From Deltaproteobacteria bacterium (GTDB taxonomy: Bacteria > UBA10199 > GCA-002796325 > JACPFF01), in the NCBI GenBank assembly GCA_016183125.1, contig JACPFG010000072.1, positions 1-13,309 of the forward strand: a stretch of 13,309 nt of DNA, written 5' to 3'. Each line of letters starts with the position of its first letter. Positions within the stretch are counted from its first letter, which is position 1. Both the position numbers and the translations under genes were made by a program. The notes beneath the pieces were generated by a model that saw only the letters and a list, made by a program, of their open reading frames with translations, was not told the origin of the DNA and did not search any database. This document shows, in pieces, positions 383 to 13,309 of the stretch.

Positions 383-1174
383 ATGCCAAACATGAAAATG
401 GTCGGATATCTGACCGGTGGCATCCTGCTGCTGCTGATCGCGCTATCTGCCAATCCGTTCGTGATGATCGGCGCCGGCGAACGGGGGGTAGTTATGCAGC
501 TGGGGGCCGTGCAGGAGAAGGTCCTGGAAGAGGGGCTCCATTTCCGGGTCCCGTTCGTACAACGGGTAGTCGTGATCGATGTTAGGACGCAAAAGATGCA
601 GGTAAACGCCCCCTCGTACAGCCGCGACCTGCAGAACGTCGACACCGTTATCGCCCTTAATTTTCACGTCGATCCGACACGGGTAAACAAGCTCTGGCAG
701 GAGATCGGACGGGACTTCGAGGGTCGGATCATCCATCCGGCGATACAAGAATCGGTTAAGGCGGCCACGGCCCAGTTCACCGCGGCCGAGCTGGTGGAAA
801 AGCGCCCGATGGTTAAGGACGAGATCAAGAGCATCCTACAGGAGCGGCTTGGCGGGCGCTATCTCCTGGTGGACGATTTCTCCATCGTCGATTTCAAGTT
901 TTCCGAATCCTACGAGAAGGCGATCGAGGAGAAGCAGGTCGCGCAGCAGCAGGCCCTAAAGGCGGAAAACGATCTGCGCCGGATTCAGGTGGAGGCCGAG
1001 CAACGGGTCGCCACCGCAAAGGCCGAGGCCGAGGCCATAAGGATTACAGCCGAGGCCCTGCGGCAGAATCCGGACCTGATTCAGTTGGAGGCGGTGAAGA
1101 AATGGGACGGCAAGATGCCGCAGTTTGCCGGGGGCGGATCGATGCCGTTTATCAACCTTCCCACGGGAAGATAG
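383..1174 (+). CDS. SPFH / band-7 / prohibitin-family membrane protein
   Basis: ORF 134-1174. The likely start is ATG 383 ([10 protein letters not shown]...), preceded by AAAGGGGAG. It has an N-terminal TM helix ([18 protein letters not shown]), then a PHB-domain-like core and a C-terminal coiled coil ([37 protein letters not shown]). Stop TAG 1172-1174. Confidence 0.85.
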
Positions 1175-1511
1175 GGGACGGTTTACGCATGGCCTTGACC
1201 CCCGCCCGGTGACGTTTGTCGGCAAGCATCCGCTCCTTCGAACGGCGCGAACGCAGTCGTTTTTGCCGGCGGATCTTTTCTCGGCGCTGCTCCTCGGCGC
1301 TGGCAGCCCCCAATAGTTTGGCCTCCAGCTTTTCGCACAGCAAACGTCGCGCAAGAAAACGATTGATCGCCTGGCTCCGCTCCCTCTGGCATTTGACCTC
1401 TATCCCGGTAGGCCGGTGGCGCAACACCACGCAGGTGGAGGTCTTGTTGACCTTCTGCCCGCCGGCCCCCGACGATCGCGGATCCCAAGTCGCGCCATTC
1501 GGGCCGCCAGT
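1152..1511 (-). CDS. GGQ-domain peptidyl-tRNA hydrolase of the class-I release-factor family (ArfB/YaeJ-like alternative ribosome-rescue factor) with a basic C-terminal tail. The frame is anomalous. It has no ATG/GTG/TTG between an in-frame TGA (1512-1514) and the GGQ motif. The same frame continues upstream as a 24-codon ATG-initiated ORF (ATG at 1584-1586), giving 144 codons overall. Possible pseudogene or recoded gene.
   Basis: My translation of the - strand reads ...[58 protein letters not shown]...[19 protein letters not shown]... This matches the RF GGQ domain ([13 protein letters not shown]...PTGIxVxCQxERSQ) and the ArfB tail (KERRLASK...VKAMRGK, from memory). The ORF track fragments it into 1152-1430 (GTG start downstream of GGQ) and a wrong-frame 1183-1515. 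Confidence 0.6.
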
Positions 1512-1607
1512 TCATTCCCCTTTGCCGGAGATACGGGCCAATTCATAGAGCGTCCTTTCGTAGACCGCATAGGCAAGTTCGATCATCGCCGACTATATAG
1601 AAAGGGC

Positions 1608-1636
1608 TTGGCGAGTCGCAACGTCTTTGGTATAAA
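1608..1636 (+). promoter_or_regulatory. Near-consensus sigma70 promoter TTGGCG-17nt-TATAAA driving the histone-fold gene. It is divergent from the ArfB-like gene.
   Basis: -35 at 1608-1613 and -10 at 1631-1636, with exactly 17-nt spacing. The SD AAAGGAG (1652-1658) is 6 nt before ATG 1665. Confidence 0.45.
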
Positions 1637-1664
1637 ACCGCCCCACTTAAGAAAGGAGCTCCAG

Positions 1665-1868
1665 ATGAGCGATGTATTGGTAGTGGCCTCGAAGGTGAAG
1701 CAGTATATCAAGGGGAAGTCCGATATGAACGTCTCGGCCAGCACGCTCGCGGCCCTGACCGATCTGGTCAAAAAGGCCTGCGACGGCGCGATCGAGAAGG
1801 CAAAGCAGGAGGGCCGGAAGACCGTGATGGATCGGGACTTTGGCGATAACGCCTGCACCCAGGTCTAG
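1665..1868 (+). CDS. 67-aa bacterial histone-fold protein (singlet histone, HBb/Bd0055-like; candidate nucleoid-associated protein)
   Basis: MSDVLVVASKVKQYIKGKSDMNVSASTLAALTDLVKKACDGAIEKAKQEGRKTVMDRDFGDNACTQV. The C-terminal AKQEGRKTVMDRD aligns with archaeal HMfB AKHAGRKTIKAEDI (the RKT loop-L2 motif). The N-terminal VLVVxSKVKxxIK pattern matches bacterial histones as I recall them. Strong SD and promoter. ATG is internal to track ORF 1416-1868. Confidence 0.75.
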   Translation: MSDVLVVASKVKQYIKGKSDMNVSASTLAALTDLVKKACDGAIEKAKQEGRKTVMDRDFGDNACTQV

Positions 1869-1901
1869 ACAGGGCGAAATCTCCTCGCAACTTTTTCTCT
1901 T
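1869..1901 (+). terminator. Weak candidate intrinsic terminator after the histone-fold gene (GCGAaatctccTCGC followed by AACTTTTTCTCTTT)
   Basis: Short 4-bp stem plus a T-rich tract. Weak. Confidence 0.2.
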
Positions 1902-3377: not shown

Positions 3378-3399
3378 ATACCTTCGGAGGGGGGTGGAT

Positions 3400-3642
3400 A
3401 TGGCGACCTCTGTGCGCACGACCATCGTGCTTCCCGGCGAAAAACTGAAGGAGCTCAAACGGCTCGCGTTTGAGCAGGGTTCCACGATCGGCCGGCTGGT
3501 GAACGAGGCCTTGGACCGGGTGTTTTTCAAGCGGCGGAAACAACGGCGGTTTCATGACCTTCGGGGTCTCTGGAAGGGGCGGCGGTTTAGTGAAAGCGCC
3601 ATTGAGGCGGCGAAACTCCGGATGAAGACCTTTCCGTCATGA
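3400..3642 (+). CDS. vapB: Ribbon-helix-helix (CopG/VapB-type) antitoxin
   Basis: MATSVRTTIVLPGEKLKELKRLAFEQGSTIGRLVNEALDRVF... SD GGAGGGGGG (3387-3395). Stop TGA overlaps the vapC ATG (ATGA at 3639-3642). The track ORF starts at GTG 3394. Confidence 0.8.
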   Translation: MATSVRTTIVLPGEKLKELKRLAFEQGSTIGRLVNEALDRVFFKRRKQRRFHDLRGLWKGRRFSESAIEAAKLRMKTFPS

Positions 3643-4031
3643 CGTACGTGCCCGATACCCATGCCTTGGTGTGGTTTCTCGCCAATGATCCGCGTTTGGG
3701 TCGCCGCGCCGGGATGGTGTTTCAGGAGGCCGCAGCGCAGTTCGCTGTGCCCACTCTCGTGCTCTGCGAGATGCACTATTTGGCGGAGCGGGAACGCATT
3801 GCCAGGGACATGGCCAAGATCCTCGACTATATGCGGGGCGACGATCGCTTCGCCCTGATCCCCTTGGATGAGAACGTTATTAGGCATCTCCCCGGGGGCC
3901 TGGACATTCATGATGGCATTATCGTTGCCACGGCGCTTGCCGTCGGCATGGCACGAAAGACCAAATCCATTCTTGTCACCCGCGATGCCGACATCCGCCG
4001 CGCGGGCCTGGTCGAAACTATTTGGGAGTAA
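3639..4031 (+). CDS. vapC: PIN-domain ribonuclease toxin VapC
   Basis: 130 aa. Conserved acidic residues: D6 (VPDTHAL), E (LCEMHYLAE), D (IHDGIIVATA) and D (VTRDADI). 4-nt overlap with vapB. Confidence 0.85.
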   Translation: MTYVPDTHALVWFLANDPRLGRRAGMVFQEAAAQFAVPTLVLCEMHYLAERERIARDMAKILDYMRGDDRFALIPLDENVIRHLPGGLDIHDGIIVATALAVGMARKTKSILVTRDADIRRAGLVETIWE

Positions 4032-4046
4032 GAGCGCGTAACGAAA

Positions 4047-5699
4047 TCAAAACTCCAGCGACAGCGTGAGACGTCCCCCGTACGCGGGATTGGCCTTGTC
4101 GTACGGCATCGTGGCGACGATCGAGCCCGGATCGATCAGCCCGACATCGATATTATAAGCGCTCCCCGGCCAGAGATAGCCTGCCTCGAGGCTGGTGAAG
4201 AGGTGATCGAAGAAGCGGGCCTCTGCGACCAGGTCGAATTCAACACCGTACCATTTCCCCCGGCTCTCGATCGAGGGCATATTGGCGTTCCCCAGGATCT
4301 CGGCGAAATTAAGGCTCACAGGCGGCTTGTGCGCCCAGGCGGTGATCACCCGCCCACCTACCTTAAACTCATTGGCCGACCTAATCGCCCGGCGGATATC
4401 GAGCCGGTGCAGATATGTCGCCCCGCCGTAGAAGGCGTTATTGATGAAATTGCCGGTGATCGGCACGCCGCCGGTAAGGGTAGCACCGGTCGTCCCGTTT
4501 CGCAGTGTCGGCGATGTTCCAAGCGGGTGGTGGAATAGGAGCAGGCCGAGATTATAGTCCGGCCGGAAGCCGAACTGTGTGATCCGCTGCGAGAGCGGTG
4601 TTGCATCCCCCTCGGCAAAACCTCCCTGCAGCTTCCACTCTCCGCCCCAGTCGTAGGTCCCCTCCGCCTCGACGGCAGCTAGATTAACAGCCAGGTCCTG
4701 CTTGGCCGGCAGCTGGATTATCCCGGGGGCGGCAAGGCCCGTGAATGGGATGGCATTTAGGGCCACACCTGTGGAGATCTTGCCGCCCAGCCGCACATAT
4801 TCGAAGGCCACCTTGTGGTGCGGATCGATCTTCACCCGGCCATACGCATCTAGAAAATACATAAGCGTGTCGCCGTCTATGCCTGCGGCCTGGGTGACAC
4901 CGTTGATGTCCGTCGCCGTCGTCGTGGTGCCAGTGCTCCCGTCCCGCCTGCGCAGGCCCCCATAGGCCCCCACCGCAAAGCGGGGCTCCTCATAGAAGGC
5001 GACCAGGGCATACTGGTTCGTATCCTGCCCGTTATCCCGAATGGCTGTGCCCAGCCCCCCGATCCGCGGGTCCCGCTGGGCCTCGAACGCGATGTCCCAT
5101 AGCGCGCCGACCGTCAGGGCCCCATCGGTGCCGATCGCCTGCTGGGTTAAGAACATCACCCGGTCGGCCGTGTCGCCAAAATCACCCTGTCGGTGGTTGC
5201 CGTCGTTCTGGAAGATCCCCAGCCCCCAGTGAGAGGGCTGGCGCCCTGCGCGCAATTTGCCAATCGGCGTGAAGATGTCGATCCACGCGCGGCGCACGTT
5301 GAGACTGCGGTTTTCGCCCGCCTCGCTCCCGACCACACTCAAACTCCCCGCGCCGGCGGGGAGCGTGATCGTGCCCACCACCGGTGAGAGGACCTCCAGT
5401 TGTTTGGTCGCCTGGCTGCCGAAGGTCAGATTGTCGAGGATATCGAACTGGGTGTGGAGAGAGAGAAAATCGTTTACCTTGAGTGTCGGTTCCACCCGCA
5501 GGCGCATCTGGTTGTACTGGATAAGGCCGAACCGGTCGTTCGTATTTGCCAGGGTGCTCGGCCTCTGTGTATCAAGATCTTGAAGCGCCGACCCTCTGAG
5601 CCGATAGTAACCGTGCGCGGCAAAATCAACCGCGTGGCCAAGGCGGGGAGAGAGGACGCAGCAAAGTAATGCCGGCAACAACCGCGCGATCGCTTTCAT
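4047..5699 (-). CDS. Outer-membrane beta-barrel protein, 550 aa, with signal peptide and C-terminal Phe
   Basis: N-terminal MKAIARLLPALLCCVLSPRLGHA signal peptide. Alternating hydrophobic beta-strand pattern, rich in G/Y/N/D. C-terminal ...GGRLTLSLEF, the aromatic terminus typical of the OMP beta-signal. No family assignment is possible by eye. Confidence 0.75.
   Translation of the reverse strand: MKAIARLLPALLCCVLSPRLGHAVDFAAHGYYRLRGSALQDLDTQRPSTLANTNDRFGLIQYNQMRLRVEPTLKVNDFLSLHTQFDILDNLTFGSQATKQLEVLSPVVGTITLPAGAGSLSVVGSEAGENRSLNVRRAWIDIFTPIGKLRAGRQPSHWGLGIFQNDGNHRQGDFGDTADRVMFLTQQAIGTDGALTVGALWDIAFEAQRDPRIGGLGTAIRDNGQDTNQYALVAFYEEPRFAVGAYGGLRRRDGSTGTTTTATDINGVTQAAGIDGDTLMYFLDAYGRVKIDPHHKVAFEYVRLGGKISTGVALNAIPFTGLAAPGIIQLPAKQDLAVNLAAVEAEGTYDWGGEWKLQGGFAEGDATPLSQRITQFGFRPDYNLGLLLFHHPLGTSPTLRNGTTGATLTGGVPITGNFINNAFYGGATYLHRLDIRRAIRSANEFKVGGRVITAWAHKPPVSLNFAEILGNANMPSIESRGKWYGVEFDLVAEARFFDHLFTSLEAGYLWPGSAYNIDVGLIDPGSIVATMPYDKANPAYGGRLTLSLEF
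4049..4069. repeat. Right copy of the 21-bp direct repeat AAAACTCCAGCGACAGCGTGA. It forms the functional 3' end (…RLTLSLEF-stop) of the OMP gene.
   Basis: Exact match to 3307-3327. Confidence 0.7.
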
Positions 5700-5797: not shown

Positions 5798-7375
<1,578 letters not shown>

Positions 7376-10175: not shown

Positions 10176-11359
10176 TGAAATCGGTCCGCGAGATTGCGTG
10201 TCACGAACAGCGCGTCTTCTTGCGCGTCGATTGGAATTGTCCGCTGGCCGACGACAGGGTGGCCGACGATGCGCGCATCCGTGCGACGTTGCCTACCGTC
10301 AGGTATCTGTTGGAGCAGAAGGCGCGTATTATAATTGCGTCACATCTAGGCCGGCCTTCCGGCGCCGGTTTCGAGCCAAGCTATTCTCTGGCCCCTGTGG
10401 GGGAGCGGCTGGCCGAACTCCTGGCGGACGACACGGAGGTCCTTTTGCCGGAGGATTGCATCGGAGATGCGGCGCGGAAGCTGGCGCATGAACTTGCGCC
10501 GGGCCAGATCCTCTTGTTGGAAAATCTTCGATTTCATCCGGAGGAGGAGAAGAATGATCCCAAATTCGCCGAGTTGCTGGCCGGTCTGGCGGAGGTCTAC
10601 GTGAACGATGCCTTCGGGGCCGCGCATCGGGCGCACGCCTCCATCGTCGGCGTGCCTCGGCTGATGCCGGTGAAGGCGGCCGGATTACTGATGCAGCGGG
10701 AGACAGAGCAGTTAGGTCAGTTGCTTTCTAAACCTGCCCGCCCATTCGTGGCCATGTTGGGGGGGGCCAAGGTGGCAGATAAGATCGGCGTGATCGAGCA
10801 TCTGCTGTCTACCGCAGATGTGCTCGCTATCGGTGGCGCGATGGCGTATACGTTTCTCAAGGCAAAGGAAATTTCAGTCGGCAGGTCGCCGGTGGACGAG
10901 GCGAAGGTGTTCACCGCGCGCAAGGTGCTGGAGCGGGCCGAGACTAAGGGGGTGCGGGTGCTCCTCCCGGCGGACCATATCGCTGCGGCGTCGCCGGAGG
11001 CCGCCGGAAAGGTGATCCGGGAGGCTAATATCCCGGCCGACTTGCAAGGATGCGACATCGGACCCCAAACGACCGTCCAGTTTGCCAGGGTCTGCAAGGA
11101 GGCTCGCACTATCTTTTGGAACGGTCCTATGGGCCGGTTTGAGATCCCGGAGTTTGCGAAAGGAACGGTGGCGGTGGCGCAGGCAGTAGCGGCCAGTGAG
11201 GCGGTGACGGTGGTAGGGGGCGGCGATTCGATTGCGGCGCTGCATCAGGCAGGTGTGGCTGAACGGATCACCCATGTCTCTACTGGTGGAGGGGCAAGCC
11301 TGGATTTCCTGGAGGGGAAGACCCTGCCGGGGATAGAGGCGCTGGAGGTTTCTTCATGA
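10166..11359 (+). CDS. pgk: Phosphoglycerate kinase
   Basis: Canonical PGK sequence throughout. The start is one of ATG 10166, 10172 or 10175; 10175 overlaps the gap stop as TGATG. The TGA stop overlaps the tpiA ATG (ATGA). Confidence 0.95.
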   Translation: MVMMKSVREIACHEQRVFLRVDWNCPLADDRVADDARIRATLPTVRYLLEQKARIIIASHLGRPSGAGFEPSYSLAPVGERLAELLADDTEVLLPEDCIGDAARKLAHELAPGQILLLENLRFHPEEEKNDPKFAELLAGLAEVYVNDAFGAAHRAHASIVGVPRLMPVKAAGLLMQRETEQLGQLLSKPARPFVAMLGGAKVADKIGVIEHLLSTADVLAIGGAMAYTFLKAKEISVGRSPVDEAKVFTARKVLERAETKGVRVLLPADHIAAASPEAAGKVIREANIPADLQGCDIGPQTTVQFARVCKEARTIFWNGPMGRFEIPEFAKGTVAVAQAVAASEAVTVVGGGDSIAALHQAGVAERITHVSTGGGASLDFLEGKTLPGIEALEVSS

Positions 11360-12011
11360 CATCACGGGGCCTGGTGGTGGGCAACTGGAAGATGCACGGG
11401 ACGATAGGGGAGAGCCTGAAGCTCGTAACAGGGATGGAGCATCATCTTAAGGCCCCTGTGGAGCTCGACGTTGCCGTGGCACCTCCTTTCACGGCGCTCT
11501 ATTCGGTAGGGATAACCCTGCAGGAGACCCAGTTTCATCTGGCGGCCCAACAGATGATATCGTGAATAAGAAACTTGAGGCTGCGTTGCGCAATGAGCTC
11601 GCGCCGATTTTTTGCGTAGGTGAGACGGCGGATGAGCGCGAACGGCGTGAAATGGAGACTGTGCTCGAGCGACAGATCAAACGAGGCCTGGCCGGGTTGC
11701 ATCATAAAGATGTGGAACATCTAGTGGTAGCCTACGAGCCGATATGGGCGATTGGGACGGGCAAGACAGCGACAGCAGACCAGATAGCCGAGGCCCATCA
11801 TTTCCTTCGCAATCTATTGGAAAAACTATACGATGCGCCTACGGCCGTGCAGGTGCGAATCCTCTACGGGGGAAGCGTCGCTGTGGAGAGTGCGGGTTTG
11901 ATAGCTGAGTTAAATGGGGTTGACGGTTTCCTGGTCGGTGGAGCGTCGCTAACAGCCGGTGACTTCGCCGAGATCGTCCGTACGGCTGAACTGAAGATCC
12001 GAAAGAGGTGA
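11356..12011 (+). pseudogene. tpiA: Triosephosphate isomerase gene disrupted by an internal deletion of about 118 nt plus a frameshift. The N-terminal 69-codon fragment is 11356-11565. The C-terminal 149-codon fragment is 11562-12011, in another frame.
   Basis: The N fragment ...VGNWKMHGT...VAVAPPFTAL...LAAQQMIS-stop matches TIM up to the AQN region. The C fragment starts (V)NKKLEAALRNELAPIFCVGE... and continues with YEPIWAIGTGKTAT...ILYGGSV...GGASL. The catalytic H95 segment is missing between them. Confidence 0.8.
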
Positions 12012-12306: not shown

Positions 12307-12325
12307 CTACACACAACCTCTTTCT

Positions 12326-12484
12326 CTAACGCAATACATTTTCGACAAACTCCTTTGCTTCTTCGACGATCAAGTCGGCCTTCTCCGGTGTTATCGGCGA
12401 GGGATTGGAACCCTTGCAGATCGTCGGGATGGTGGGCGTTGCCGCCTCGGTCCTTCTCCTCCAGCGACTCACCGCCGTCGCCAT
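12326..12484 (-). CDS. Speculative 52-aa ORF downstream of, and co-oriented with, the Fic gene (MATAVSRWRRRTEAATPTIPTICKGSNPSPITPEKADLIVEEAKEFVENVLR)
   Basis: Hand-translated. Below the 60-aa track cutoff. Basic N-terminus and amphipathic acidic C-terminus. No SD. Confidence 0.12.
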   Translation of the reverse strand: MATAVSRWRRRTEAATPTIPTICKGSNPSPITPEKADLIVEEAKEFVENVLR

Positions 12485-12523
12485 CCCGCAGCCGGGATGA
12501 TCATTGGCAAGCGAAGGGATCGG

Positions 12524-13309
12524 TTATTTTCCTAGAGTCTCTGCAAGGGCGTAGCTGGTAGAGCGCCCGCGCGCCGGATCTTTGGCCAGGATATGCCGCG
12601 CGACCAGGTCGTCAATATCGCGTAGCGCCGTATCTTGCGAGCACTTGGCTAGCTTCGCCCATTTCGACGATGTAAGCTTGCCGTCAAATCCATCGAGAAG
12701 ACGGTTGATGACAAGGCGTTGTCGGTCGTTTAAGGATTGGCTCCTCTGTTCTTCCCAAAAGCGCGCTTTTTTCATCACACCCGCGAGGATGGTCTCTGCG
12801 CCTTCGAAGGCCCGATCAAGACAGTTCAAGAACCAATCAAGCCAGAGCGTGATGTCGAGATAGCCCCTCTGGGTGGCTTCGAGAATGTCATAATAGGCCT
12901 TTCGCTCTTCCCGGATCTGCGCCGACATGCTGTAGAAGCGTTGCGCATTCTTCTCTGAGCGCGCGAGCGTAAGATCAGCAATGGCGCGTGCTATACGACC
13001 ATTGCCGTCGTCGAAAGGATGGATGGTGACAAACCAAAGGTGCGCCACACCTGCCTTGAGAACCAAATCGTCGGGCGCATCTTTTTTATTGAACCAGTGC
13101 AGAAACGCCTTCATCTCCGTGCGCAGGCGGTCAGTAGCGGGCGCCTCATAATGGACCCGCTCGCGGCCCGCCGCACCGGAAACAACCTGCATCGGGCCGG
13201 TCTTGTCTTTACGCCATGCACCGACGGTGATCTTGGTCATGCCGCTACGCCCGGTTGGAAACAGCGAGGCGTGCCATGCGAACAAGCGATTGGTGGTCAT
13301 CGGGTCGGC
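12524..13309 (-). CDS. Fic/Doc-family protein (AMPylase-type), 3' portion only; the 5' end lies beyond the window edge. Core motif HPFDDGNGRIAR and a C-terminal winged-helix-like domain.
   Basis: HPFxDGNGRxxR read directly in ...VTIHPFDDGNGRIARAIADLTLA... The ORF is still open at 13309 (track M at 13300 is internal). Stop at 12524-12526. Confidence 0.85.
   Translation of the reverse strand, partial: ADPMTTNRLFAWHASLFPTGRSGMTKITVGAWRKDKTGPMQVVSGAAGRERVHYEAPATDRLRTEMKAFLHWFNKKDAPDDLVLKAGVAHLWFVTIHPFDDGNGRIARAIADLTLARSEKNAQRFYSMSAQIREERKAYYDILEATQRGYLDITLWLDWFLNCLDRAFEGAETILAGVMKKARFWEEQRSQSLNDRQRLVINRLLDGFDGKLTSSKWAKLAKCSQDTALRDIDDLVARHILAKDPARGRSTSYALAETLGK

Follow-up and report, generated by a model that had tools for sequence, protein, structure and literature searches.

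The question raised by contig JACPFG010000072.1, which belongs to the metagenome-assembled genome (MAG) of an uncultured groundwater-type "Deltaproteobacteria bacterium", is whether a small open reading frame (ORF) on its plus strand encodes a bacterial histone and, if so, of which type. Bacterial histones have been established as real chromatin proteins only in 2023-2025, with HBb and then with HLp, and to our knowledge only two have been studied experimentally. The analysis covered the whole contig of 13,309 bp (the window). The ORF extends from the ATG at position 1665 to a TAG stop codon at positions 1866-1868, and its product (MSDVLVVASKVKQYIKGKSDMNVSASTLAALTDLVKKACDGAIEKAKQEGRKTVMDRDFGDNACTQV) is a small protein of 67 amino acids with a pI of about 8.6. 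The product is identical to GenBank entry MBI2346371.1, annotated as "hypothetical protein HYV03_05725", and the look-up of its exact sequence returned no further contigs on record. An earlier reading of this DNA, made without database searches (the sequence-only reading), had given the coordinates and the sequence of the ORF correctly except for the protein end, which it had placed at DRDF; an eight-residue tail, GDNACTQV, comes after this motif.

Homology and conservation of the encoded protein

In a phmmer search against the sequences of solved structures, the top match of the protein was HBb, also named Bd0055 (8FVX, 8CMP; E=1.7e-12), aligned without gaps over residues 1-59 with 30 of the 59 residues identical (51%), and the single-sequence match to Leptospira HLp had an E-value of 2.3e-4. 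A family profile built from 58 members and compared with the same type of sequences matched HBb with E=2.7e-25, followed by HLp (9QT0; E=5.3e-12), HTkC from Thermococcus (9F2C; E=3.9e-10), HmvA (E=5.9e-6), and archaeal histone A (E=1.8e-3). HBb being the first match of both the single sequence and the profile, the proposal made in the sequence-only reading, that the protein is a singlet bacterial histone like HBb/Bd0055, is upheld. The N-terminal likeness described there also held, since the pattern fits both HBb (MAEVLVVTSKVKKLIKEKGQMNTS) and Leptospira HLp. The same reading had leaned on a residue-for-residue match to the L2/alpha3 segment of archaeal HMfB. In the profile alignment, positions 29-60 of the histone do pair with residues 30-61 of HMfB/HMfA, with GRKTV...D opposite GRKTI...D, so that the register was right, but this match is restricted to the L2-alpha3 segment and is not significant alone (E of about 0.2-0.3). 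At the level of sequence, it is the HBb match, and not the HMf match, that carries the histone identification. The string AKHAGRKTIKAEDI, quoted at that point as HMfB, is presumably that of HMfA.

Homologues of the protein are numerous. A word-indexed search of a 90%-clustered database returned 319 of them at E≤1e-3, and a profile run exhaustively against 1.84 billion representatives clustered at 50% identity returned 1,321 at the same threshold, with 566 clusters at E≤1e-10. The description of bacterial histones as rare has therefore to be tempered, as the HBb-type subfamily alone amounts to hundreds of 50%-identity metagenome clusters. Alignment of 58 relatives revealed 17 invariant columns (L5, V6, V7, A8, S9, K10, K12, Y14, L31, A46, R51, K52, T53, V54, M55, D56, and D58), a pattern that indicates clear purifying selection on the family. 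The 69%-identical relative OGQ44933.1 (P0042 in our set), from "Deltaproteobacteria bacterium RIFCSPLOWO2_02_FULL_46_8", was already catalogued as a bacterial histone in Hocher et al. 2023.

These data bear on the trivial explanation that the ORF arose by chance or derives from archaeal or eukaryotic contamination. Such an explanation could appeal to the GenBank label, which is "hypothetical protein" only, and to the assembly or decay problems seen in three other genes of the contig. It is contradicted by the hundreds of homologues, by the purifying selection with its 17 invariant columns, by an alignment that is gap-free and full-length, by the bacterial nature of the flanking contig genes (GroES/GroEL, GAPDH, PGK, and SecG), and by the restriction of the HBb-type subfamily to bacteria. 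The explanation is effectively refuted.

Assignment to the HBb-type histones

Schwab et al. 2024 described alpha3 histones as proteins with an alpha3 helix of 3-4 residues and an alpha2 helix 4-5 residues shorter than that of nucleosomal histones (PMC11390915). The group of "bacterial dimers", defined by sequence clustering, is characterized by kinship with HBb, an RKTxxxD motif, lysines in alpha1, and the lack of a face-to-face (FtF) Arg/Asn pair; the logo positions are 11, 13, and 17 for the alpha1 lysines (K10, K12, and K16 in HBb) and R48/N52 for the FtF residues (R49/N53 in HLp) (PMC11390915). Besides having HBb as its top, gap-free match, the histone of the window shows short alpha2 and alpha3 helices, predicted at residues 2-19, 25-48, and 54-57 (alpha1 to alpha3) in a low-confidence AlphaFold2 (AF2) model, a layout that is independently supported by the gap-free alignment with the HBb crystal sequence. 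The L2/alpha3 motif and the Arg-Asp clamp are present as R51-K52-T53-V-M-D-R-D58, and so are the alpha1 lysines K10, K12, and K16, the first two being invariant. Residues required for tetramer formation are absent: Q48 occupies the position of archaeal His49, where Bd0055 has A48, and restoring wrapping in Bd0055 needs the changes A48H, S45F, and I61L (PMC10627809). The nucleosomal signature, consisting of a three-turn alpha3, a full-length alpha2, and the His49 four-helix-bundle interface, was not found. Each bacterial-dimer feature tested being present, it follows that the gene is very probably an HBb-type histone by descent.

The closest competing assignment is to the face-to-face histones of the HLp/HTkC type, which form stable tetramers through pairing of R49/S52/N53 with R55/T61/F63 and wrap about 60 bp. 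Among the solved structures, HLp and HTkC rank next after HBb in the profile comparison, and they share with the histone of the window the truncated alpha3. However, the tetramer residues R49 and N53 of HLp are replaced by K45 and E49, position 45 varies from member to member of the family, and of the FtF signature (the R49, N53, R55 dimer-dimer hydrogen-bond network) only the clamp Arg, R51, is kept. In addition, the match to HBb is better by 13 orders of magnitude. A tetrameric, DNA-wrapping protein of this type is thus highly improbable, and, as judged from the alignments, HLp-type, DUF1931-type, and nucleosomal assignments are excluded.

Comparison with the individual known systems points in the same direction. 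The protein shares with HBb (PDB 8FVX, 8FW7, 8CMP, 9EZZ, and 9F0E) the helix lengths, the R51-D58 clamp, C39, the lysines K10/K12/K16/K18, N22, S24, and R57, the lack of a tetramerisation His, and a similar net charge, the numbers of basic (K+R, 11) and acidic (D+E, 9) residues being equal. It differs from HBb in having A8, V23, and E49 in place of T8, T23, and D49, and in its C-terminus, GDNACTQV instead of VIDHL; moreover, the host of HBb is a cultured predator, whereas the histone of the window comes from an uncultured MAG and is known from sequence. With HLp of Leptospira perolatii (9QT0-2) and HTkC of Thermococcus kodakarensis (9F2C), it has in common the truncated fold, the L(I/V)VASKVK-YIK block, and the RD clamp, and differs from them by K45, Q48, and E49 at the FtF R49/S52/N53 positions. 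HMfA/HMfB (1B67, 1A7W, and 5T5K) show the same helix-loop-helix-loop-helix order and the L2-alpha3 contact segment GRKT(V/I)xxxD; on the other hand, alpha2 of the window's histone is about one turn shorter and its alpha3 has one turn versus three. Because His49 and the four-helix-bundle residues of the HMf proteins are absent, no hypernucleosome would be expected.

The AF2 model of the monomer had a pLDDT of 63, and fold searches with this poor model did not return any histone. Such a failure is what one would expect when an obligate dimer is modelled as a single chain, and the result counts neither for nor against the histone fold. A natural tandem doublet of the family, P0128, was modelled as an intramolecular histone pair with a pLDDT of 94.7. 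Listed for the doublet model were SPT3, TTHA1479, and the histone domain of Sos. Superposition of each half gave 1.0 Å with HBb (58 residues) and likewise 1.0 Å with HLp. The modelling indicates that the family sequence encodes a handshake pair; for the window's own histone, dimerisation is inferred.

Expression signals

A promoter-like site and a Shine-Dalgarno (SD) sequence precede the gene, at the places where the sequence-only reading had put TTGGCG-17-TATAAA and AAAGGAG. The SDs in front of the histone genes of relatives are strong too (AAAGGAG, CAGGAGG, and AAAGGAG). A strict consensus scanner passed over the promoter-like site because it demands a T at the last position of the -10 hexamer, which is here an A. 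Under a looser rule (at least 4/6 matches for the -35 and at least 5/6 for the -10, i.e. at least 9/12), this was the sole such site on the plus strand of the contig, with about 1.7 per strand in shuffled sequences; it lies 29-57 nt upstream of the histone ATG, and the chance of a site falling within 60 nt of this start is on the order of 1%. The gene also has the highest GC content at third codon positions (GC3, 0.84) and the highest codon adaptation index (CAI) of the contig, 0.81 versus 0.77 for GroEL, an estimate from 67 codons and a reference set of four genes (GroEL/GroES/GAPDH/PGK). This codon bias fits the high abundance reported for HBb (PMC10627809, PMC11390915). Together, promoter-like site, SD, and codon bias suggest high expression, so that the signals behind the earlier description of the gene as highly expressed stand, while the level itself is suggested and not proven.

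Downstream of the gene, a terminator scan found no intrinsic terminator 3' of the coding sequence, and RNA folding of positions 1860-1960 was not significant (z=-1.3). A promoter-like site on the minus strand (TTGCGA-18-TATAGT) faces the upstream gene, which encodes a release factor (RF)-like protein, and overlaps the histone -35; the two genes may therefore share a back-to-back promoter region.

Predicted mode of DNA binding

In HBb, DNA is contacted by T8, S9, K10, K12, and K16 of alpha1, by N22/T23/S24 of loop L1, and by K52/T53 of loop L2, with a clamp between R51 and D58 (PMC11317129). Among the invariant residues of the family, S9, K10, K12, R51, K52, T53, and D58 correspond to DNA-contact or clamp residues of HBb, and nine of the ten top DNA-contact residues in simulations of HBb (N22, R57, S9, T53, T8, S24, K10, K12, K52, and K16) are identical in the window's histone. 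Every diagnostic residue of the protein indicates an HBb-like way of working.

By analogy with HBb, from which dimerisation, DNA binding, bending, and abundance are all transferred, two chains would join in a histone-fold handshake, their alpha2 helices packed head-to-tail. Both dimer ends would display the pair of L1 and L2 loops together with the first turn of alpha1 (S9, K10, K12, K16, N22, S24, K52, T53, and R57), with the R51-D58 clamp keeping loop L2 in shape, and these residues would touch phosphates of the DNA backbone on either side of the minor groove, whatever the sequence. Because the residues of both known tetramer interfaces are missing, the protein should stay a dimer, bending the DNA or, at high density, coating it, with no nucleosome-like wrapping. 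It would act as an abundant nucleoid-associated protein (NAP). Its gene probably forms a transcription unit by itself, preceded by a promoter-like site of its own and a strong ribosome-binding site. The proposed function, and nothing else, resembles that of HU/IHF: an abundant dimeric protein, small and basic, whose contacts with the minor groove and the backbone bend DNA with no sequence specificity, but with an unrelated fold and no homology to histones. The comparison with HU/IHF was also made for HBb by Hu et al. (PMC11317129). Taken in parts, the protein is very likely a non-specific DNA-binding dimer, and we lean towards a DNA-bending NAP as opposed to a filament-coating one.

Several points weigh against this interpretation. 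The curated models for histone families score the protein below their thresholds: Pfam CBFD_NFYB_HMF (PF00808) gave 14.6 bits for a gathering score of 21.4, Pfam DUF1931 (PF09123) 13.3 bits for 21.8, and NCBIfam archaea_histone 24.4 bits for a cut-off of 50. T8 of HBb, a DNA-contact position, is replaced by A8 throughout this clade, and T23 by V23 only in the window's histone and its two nearest relatives. To these may be added the small codon sample mentioned above and the dispute on the in vitro binding mode of HBb, described as an end-on filament (PMC10627809) or as bending (PMC11317129), which makes the transferred mechanism not unique. Regarding the first point, the precomputed Pfam column is blank for all 120 relatives listed, and the curated Pfam/NCBIfam models are insensitive to the HBb-type subfamily. 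The profile check on CBFD_NFYB_HMF and DUF1931 that the sequence-only reading had proposed yielded just those sub-threshold scores and, taken literally, leads to a wrong rejection of the histone identity.

The dispute on HBb corresponds to an alternative in which the same HBb-type dimer acts as an end-on coat, dimers polymerising along straight DNA into a nucleohistone filament. The Bd0055-DNA crystal 8FW7 of Hocher et al. shows this end-on mode (PMC10627809), and the L1-L2 contact residues used in it are kept here. Conversely, Hu et al. reported that DNA is bent in solution, in molecular dynamics, and also in another crystal form (PMC11317129), and the N-terminus of Bd0055, proposed to aid contacts between neighbouring dimers (PMC10627809), varies in length and sequence across the family. 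The sequence itself does not discriminate between coating and bending; on balance, we consider the filament the less likely of the two, a possibility to be kept in mind.

A more distant alternative is that the protein has the histone fold without being a global chromatin protein, serving instead as a specialised regulator or protein-interaction module in the manner of eukaryotic TAFs or NF-Y. Schwab et al. cautioned that prokaryotic histone-fold proteins need not all organise the genome (PMC11390915), and the acidic, Cys-containing tail of the window's histone is not found in HBb. Such a role is improbable given that nearly all the residues making non-specific backbone contacts in HBb are invariant across the family, that codon bias, SD, and promoter-like site point to strong expression, and that there is no conserved partner gene.

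Identified as an HBb-type histone, the protein is correctly assigned but unsurprising, this type having been catalogued since 2023. It leaves the known picture unchanged: the published catalogue already includes close relatives that come from MAGs of this kind, and the structure, DNA contacts, and oligomeric state of HBb have been worked out (PMC10627809, PMC11317129). Its practical value is that of an extra sequence for comparative work, with the variants A8 for T8 and V23 for T23 and a Cys-bearing tail. That a clean full-length histone is left as "hypothetical" by Pfam, NCBIfam, and GenBank indicates that the family is under-annotated, and argues for a dedicated hidden Markov model of the HBb-type subfamily.

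Features of the histone gene and its surroundings

The coordinates of the gene, of its structural elements, and of other features of the contig are given in Table 1. A longer in-frame ORF starting at GTG 1416 (150 aa) was rejected as the histone gene because homologues start at MSDVLVV, because the SD precedes ATG 1665, and because the added stretch lies partly over the RF-like gene upstream, which has the opposite orientation.

Table 1. Positions of the histone gene, its elements, and other features in the 13,309-bp window
Feature	Position	Strand	Basis or content
-35-like hexamer TTGGCG	1608..1613	+	4/6 to TTGACA; read from sequence
Extended -10-like TGgTATAAA	1628..1636 (hexamer TATAAA 1631-1636)	+	5/6 to TATAAT, TG one base upstream; consensus match, 17-nt spacer after -35
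Shine-Dalgarno AAAGGAG	1652..1658	+	6 nt before ATG; read from sequence
Histone gene, 67 codons + TAG	1665..1868	+	identity to MBI2346371.1; homology to HBb crystal structures 8FVX/8CMP
Helix alpha1, residues 2-19	1668..1721	+	AF2 secondary structure H2-19; invariant LVVASK-K-Y block
alpha1 lysines K10, K12, K16, K18	within 1668..1721	+	N-terminal DNA-contact patch in HBb
Loop L1, residues 20-24, DMNVS	1722..1736	+	N22 and S24 conserved DNA-contact residues; V23 in place of usual Thr
Helix alpha2, residues 25-48 (24 residues, short form)	1737..1808	+	AF2 H25-48; gap-free HBb alignment
Loop L2 and one-turn alpha3, residues 49-59, EGRKTVMDRDF	1809..1841	+	invariant R51 K52 T53 V54 M55 D56 D58; AF2 H54-57
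Content of the L2/alpha3 segment	1809..1841	+	RKT-x4-D motif, R51-D58 clamp, DNA contacts K52, T53, R57
Variable C-terminal tail GDNACTQV, residues 60-67, one Cys (C64)	1842..1865	+	predicted disordered, pLDDT <50 for residues 62-67
Promoter-like site facing the RF-like gene	1592-1621	-	TTGCGA-18-TATAGT
GGQ/RF-1-domain (RF-like) gene	1152-1550	-	frame switch near 1478-1490
VapBC-type toxin-antitoxin pair	3394-4031	+	Antitox_RHH E=2.4e-7, PIN toxin E=2.2e-10
550-aa signal-peptide protein	4047-5699	-	TIGR04551 family, E=3.6e-35, below cut-off
GroEL	5798-7354	-	about 23 profile positions missing near residue 185
Triose-phosphate isomerase	11356-12011	+	two ORFs, without profile positions 68-110
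Fic-domain protein	12524-13300	-	reaches contig end

C-terminal tails, doublets, and fusions in the family

Among 264 family members, about 11 have a short tail with Cys, CC, CxxC, or Cys/His after the DRDF end, and they are concentrated in the closest relatives of the window's histone. Besides the latter, the carriers are P0003, P0006, P0007, P0008, P0020, P0123, P0129, P0136, P0179, and P0196. The tails vary among relatives: those of the nearest ones and of some doublets read GGGACCA, GGSCCM, GQGCCSV, GGGVCGPC, TGCCGEHQHD, CGTGTCETTGESCCG, and ENACSASSCGESENMGSC, and that of the window's histone has a single Cys. These Cys(/His) tails are the one feature that HBb does not explain. As a speculation to which we give little credence, they might act as a redox- or metal-dependent cross-linker of histone dimers, for instance by disulfide or Zn/Fe bridging, which would provide a strictly dimeric histone with a switchable means to bridge or condense DNA. 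We know of no such mechanism described for any histone subfamily.

Tandem doublets of the HBb type (126-150 aa) also occur in metagenomes (P0122, P0123, P0125-P0129, P0133, P0136, P0139, P0142, and P0143). P0124, P0130, and P0155 start with a Cys-rich domain, to which one HBb-like fold or, in P0124 and P0130, a doublet is joined; by eye, these three proteins fit the published "ZZ histones".

Gene neighbourhood and other genes of the contig

The gene order around the histone is SPFH, RF-like gene, histone, and FHA. The downstream neighbour is a proline-rich protein whose C-terminal FHA domain, already proposed in the sequence-only reading, was recognised by Pfam (E=1.6e-6). The divergent upstream neighbour, described there as ArfB-like, does contain a GGQ/RF-1 domain of this kind, but its reading frame is broken. 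The two neighbours had been regarded as notable, a view that the comparison with relatives does not sustain. Relatives L001 and L007 share the order CN-hydrolase, agmatine deiminase, 127-aa ORF, histone, PilZ, and SLT, relative L011 has glnA upstream of the histone, and no conserved gene neighbourhood around the histone was found among these three. A functional link of the ArfB-like or FHA genes to the histone was rejected because neither is conserved beside the histones of relatives: the histone gene stands on its own, and the genes beside it hold no functional information.

Three housekeeping-type genes of the contig are damaged internally (Table 1), namely those encoding GroEL, triose-phosphate isomerase, where the missing part comprises the catalytic-His region, and the GGQ-domain protein; these are pseudogenes or else artefacts of the assembly. 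The histone ORF, unlike these genes, aligns gap-free to its homologues. No tRNA genes or Rfam families were detected anywhere in the window, and no tRNA was found in the 217-nt gap after secG (12307-12523), the sole sizeable untranslated stretch at that end. The remaining features observed were a toxin-antitoxin pair of the VapBC type, with a 4-nt overlap between its genes, a signal-peptide protein related to the TIGR04551 family, and a Fic-domain protein at the contig end.
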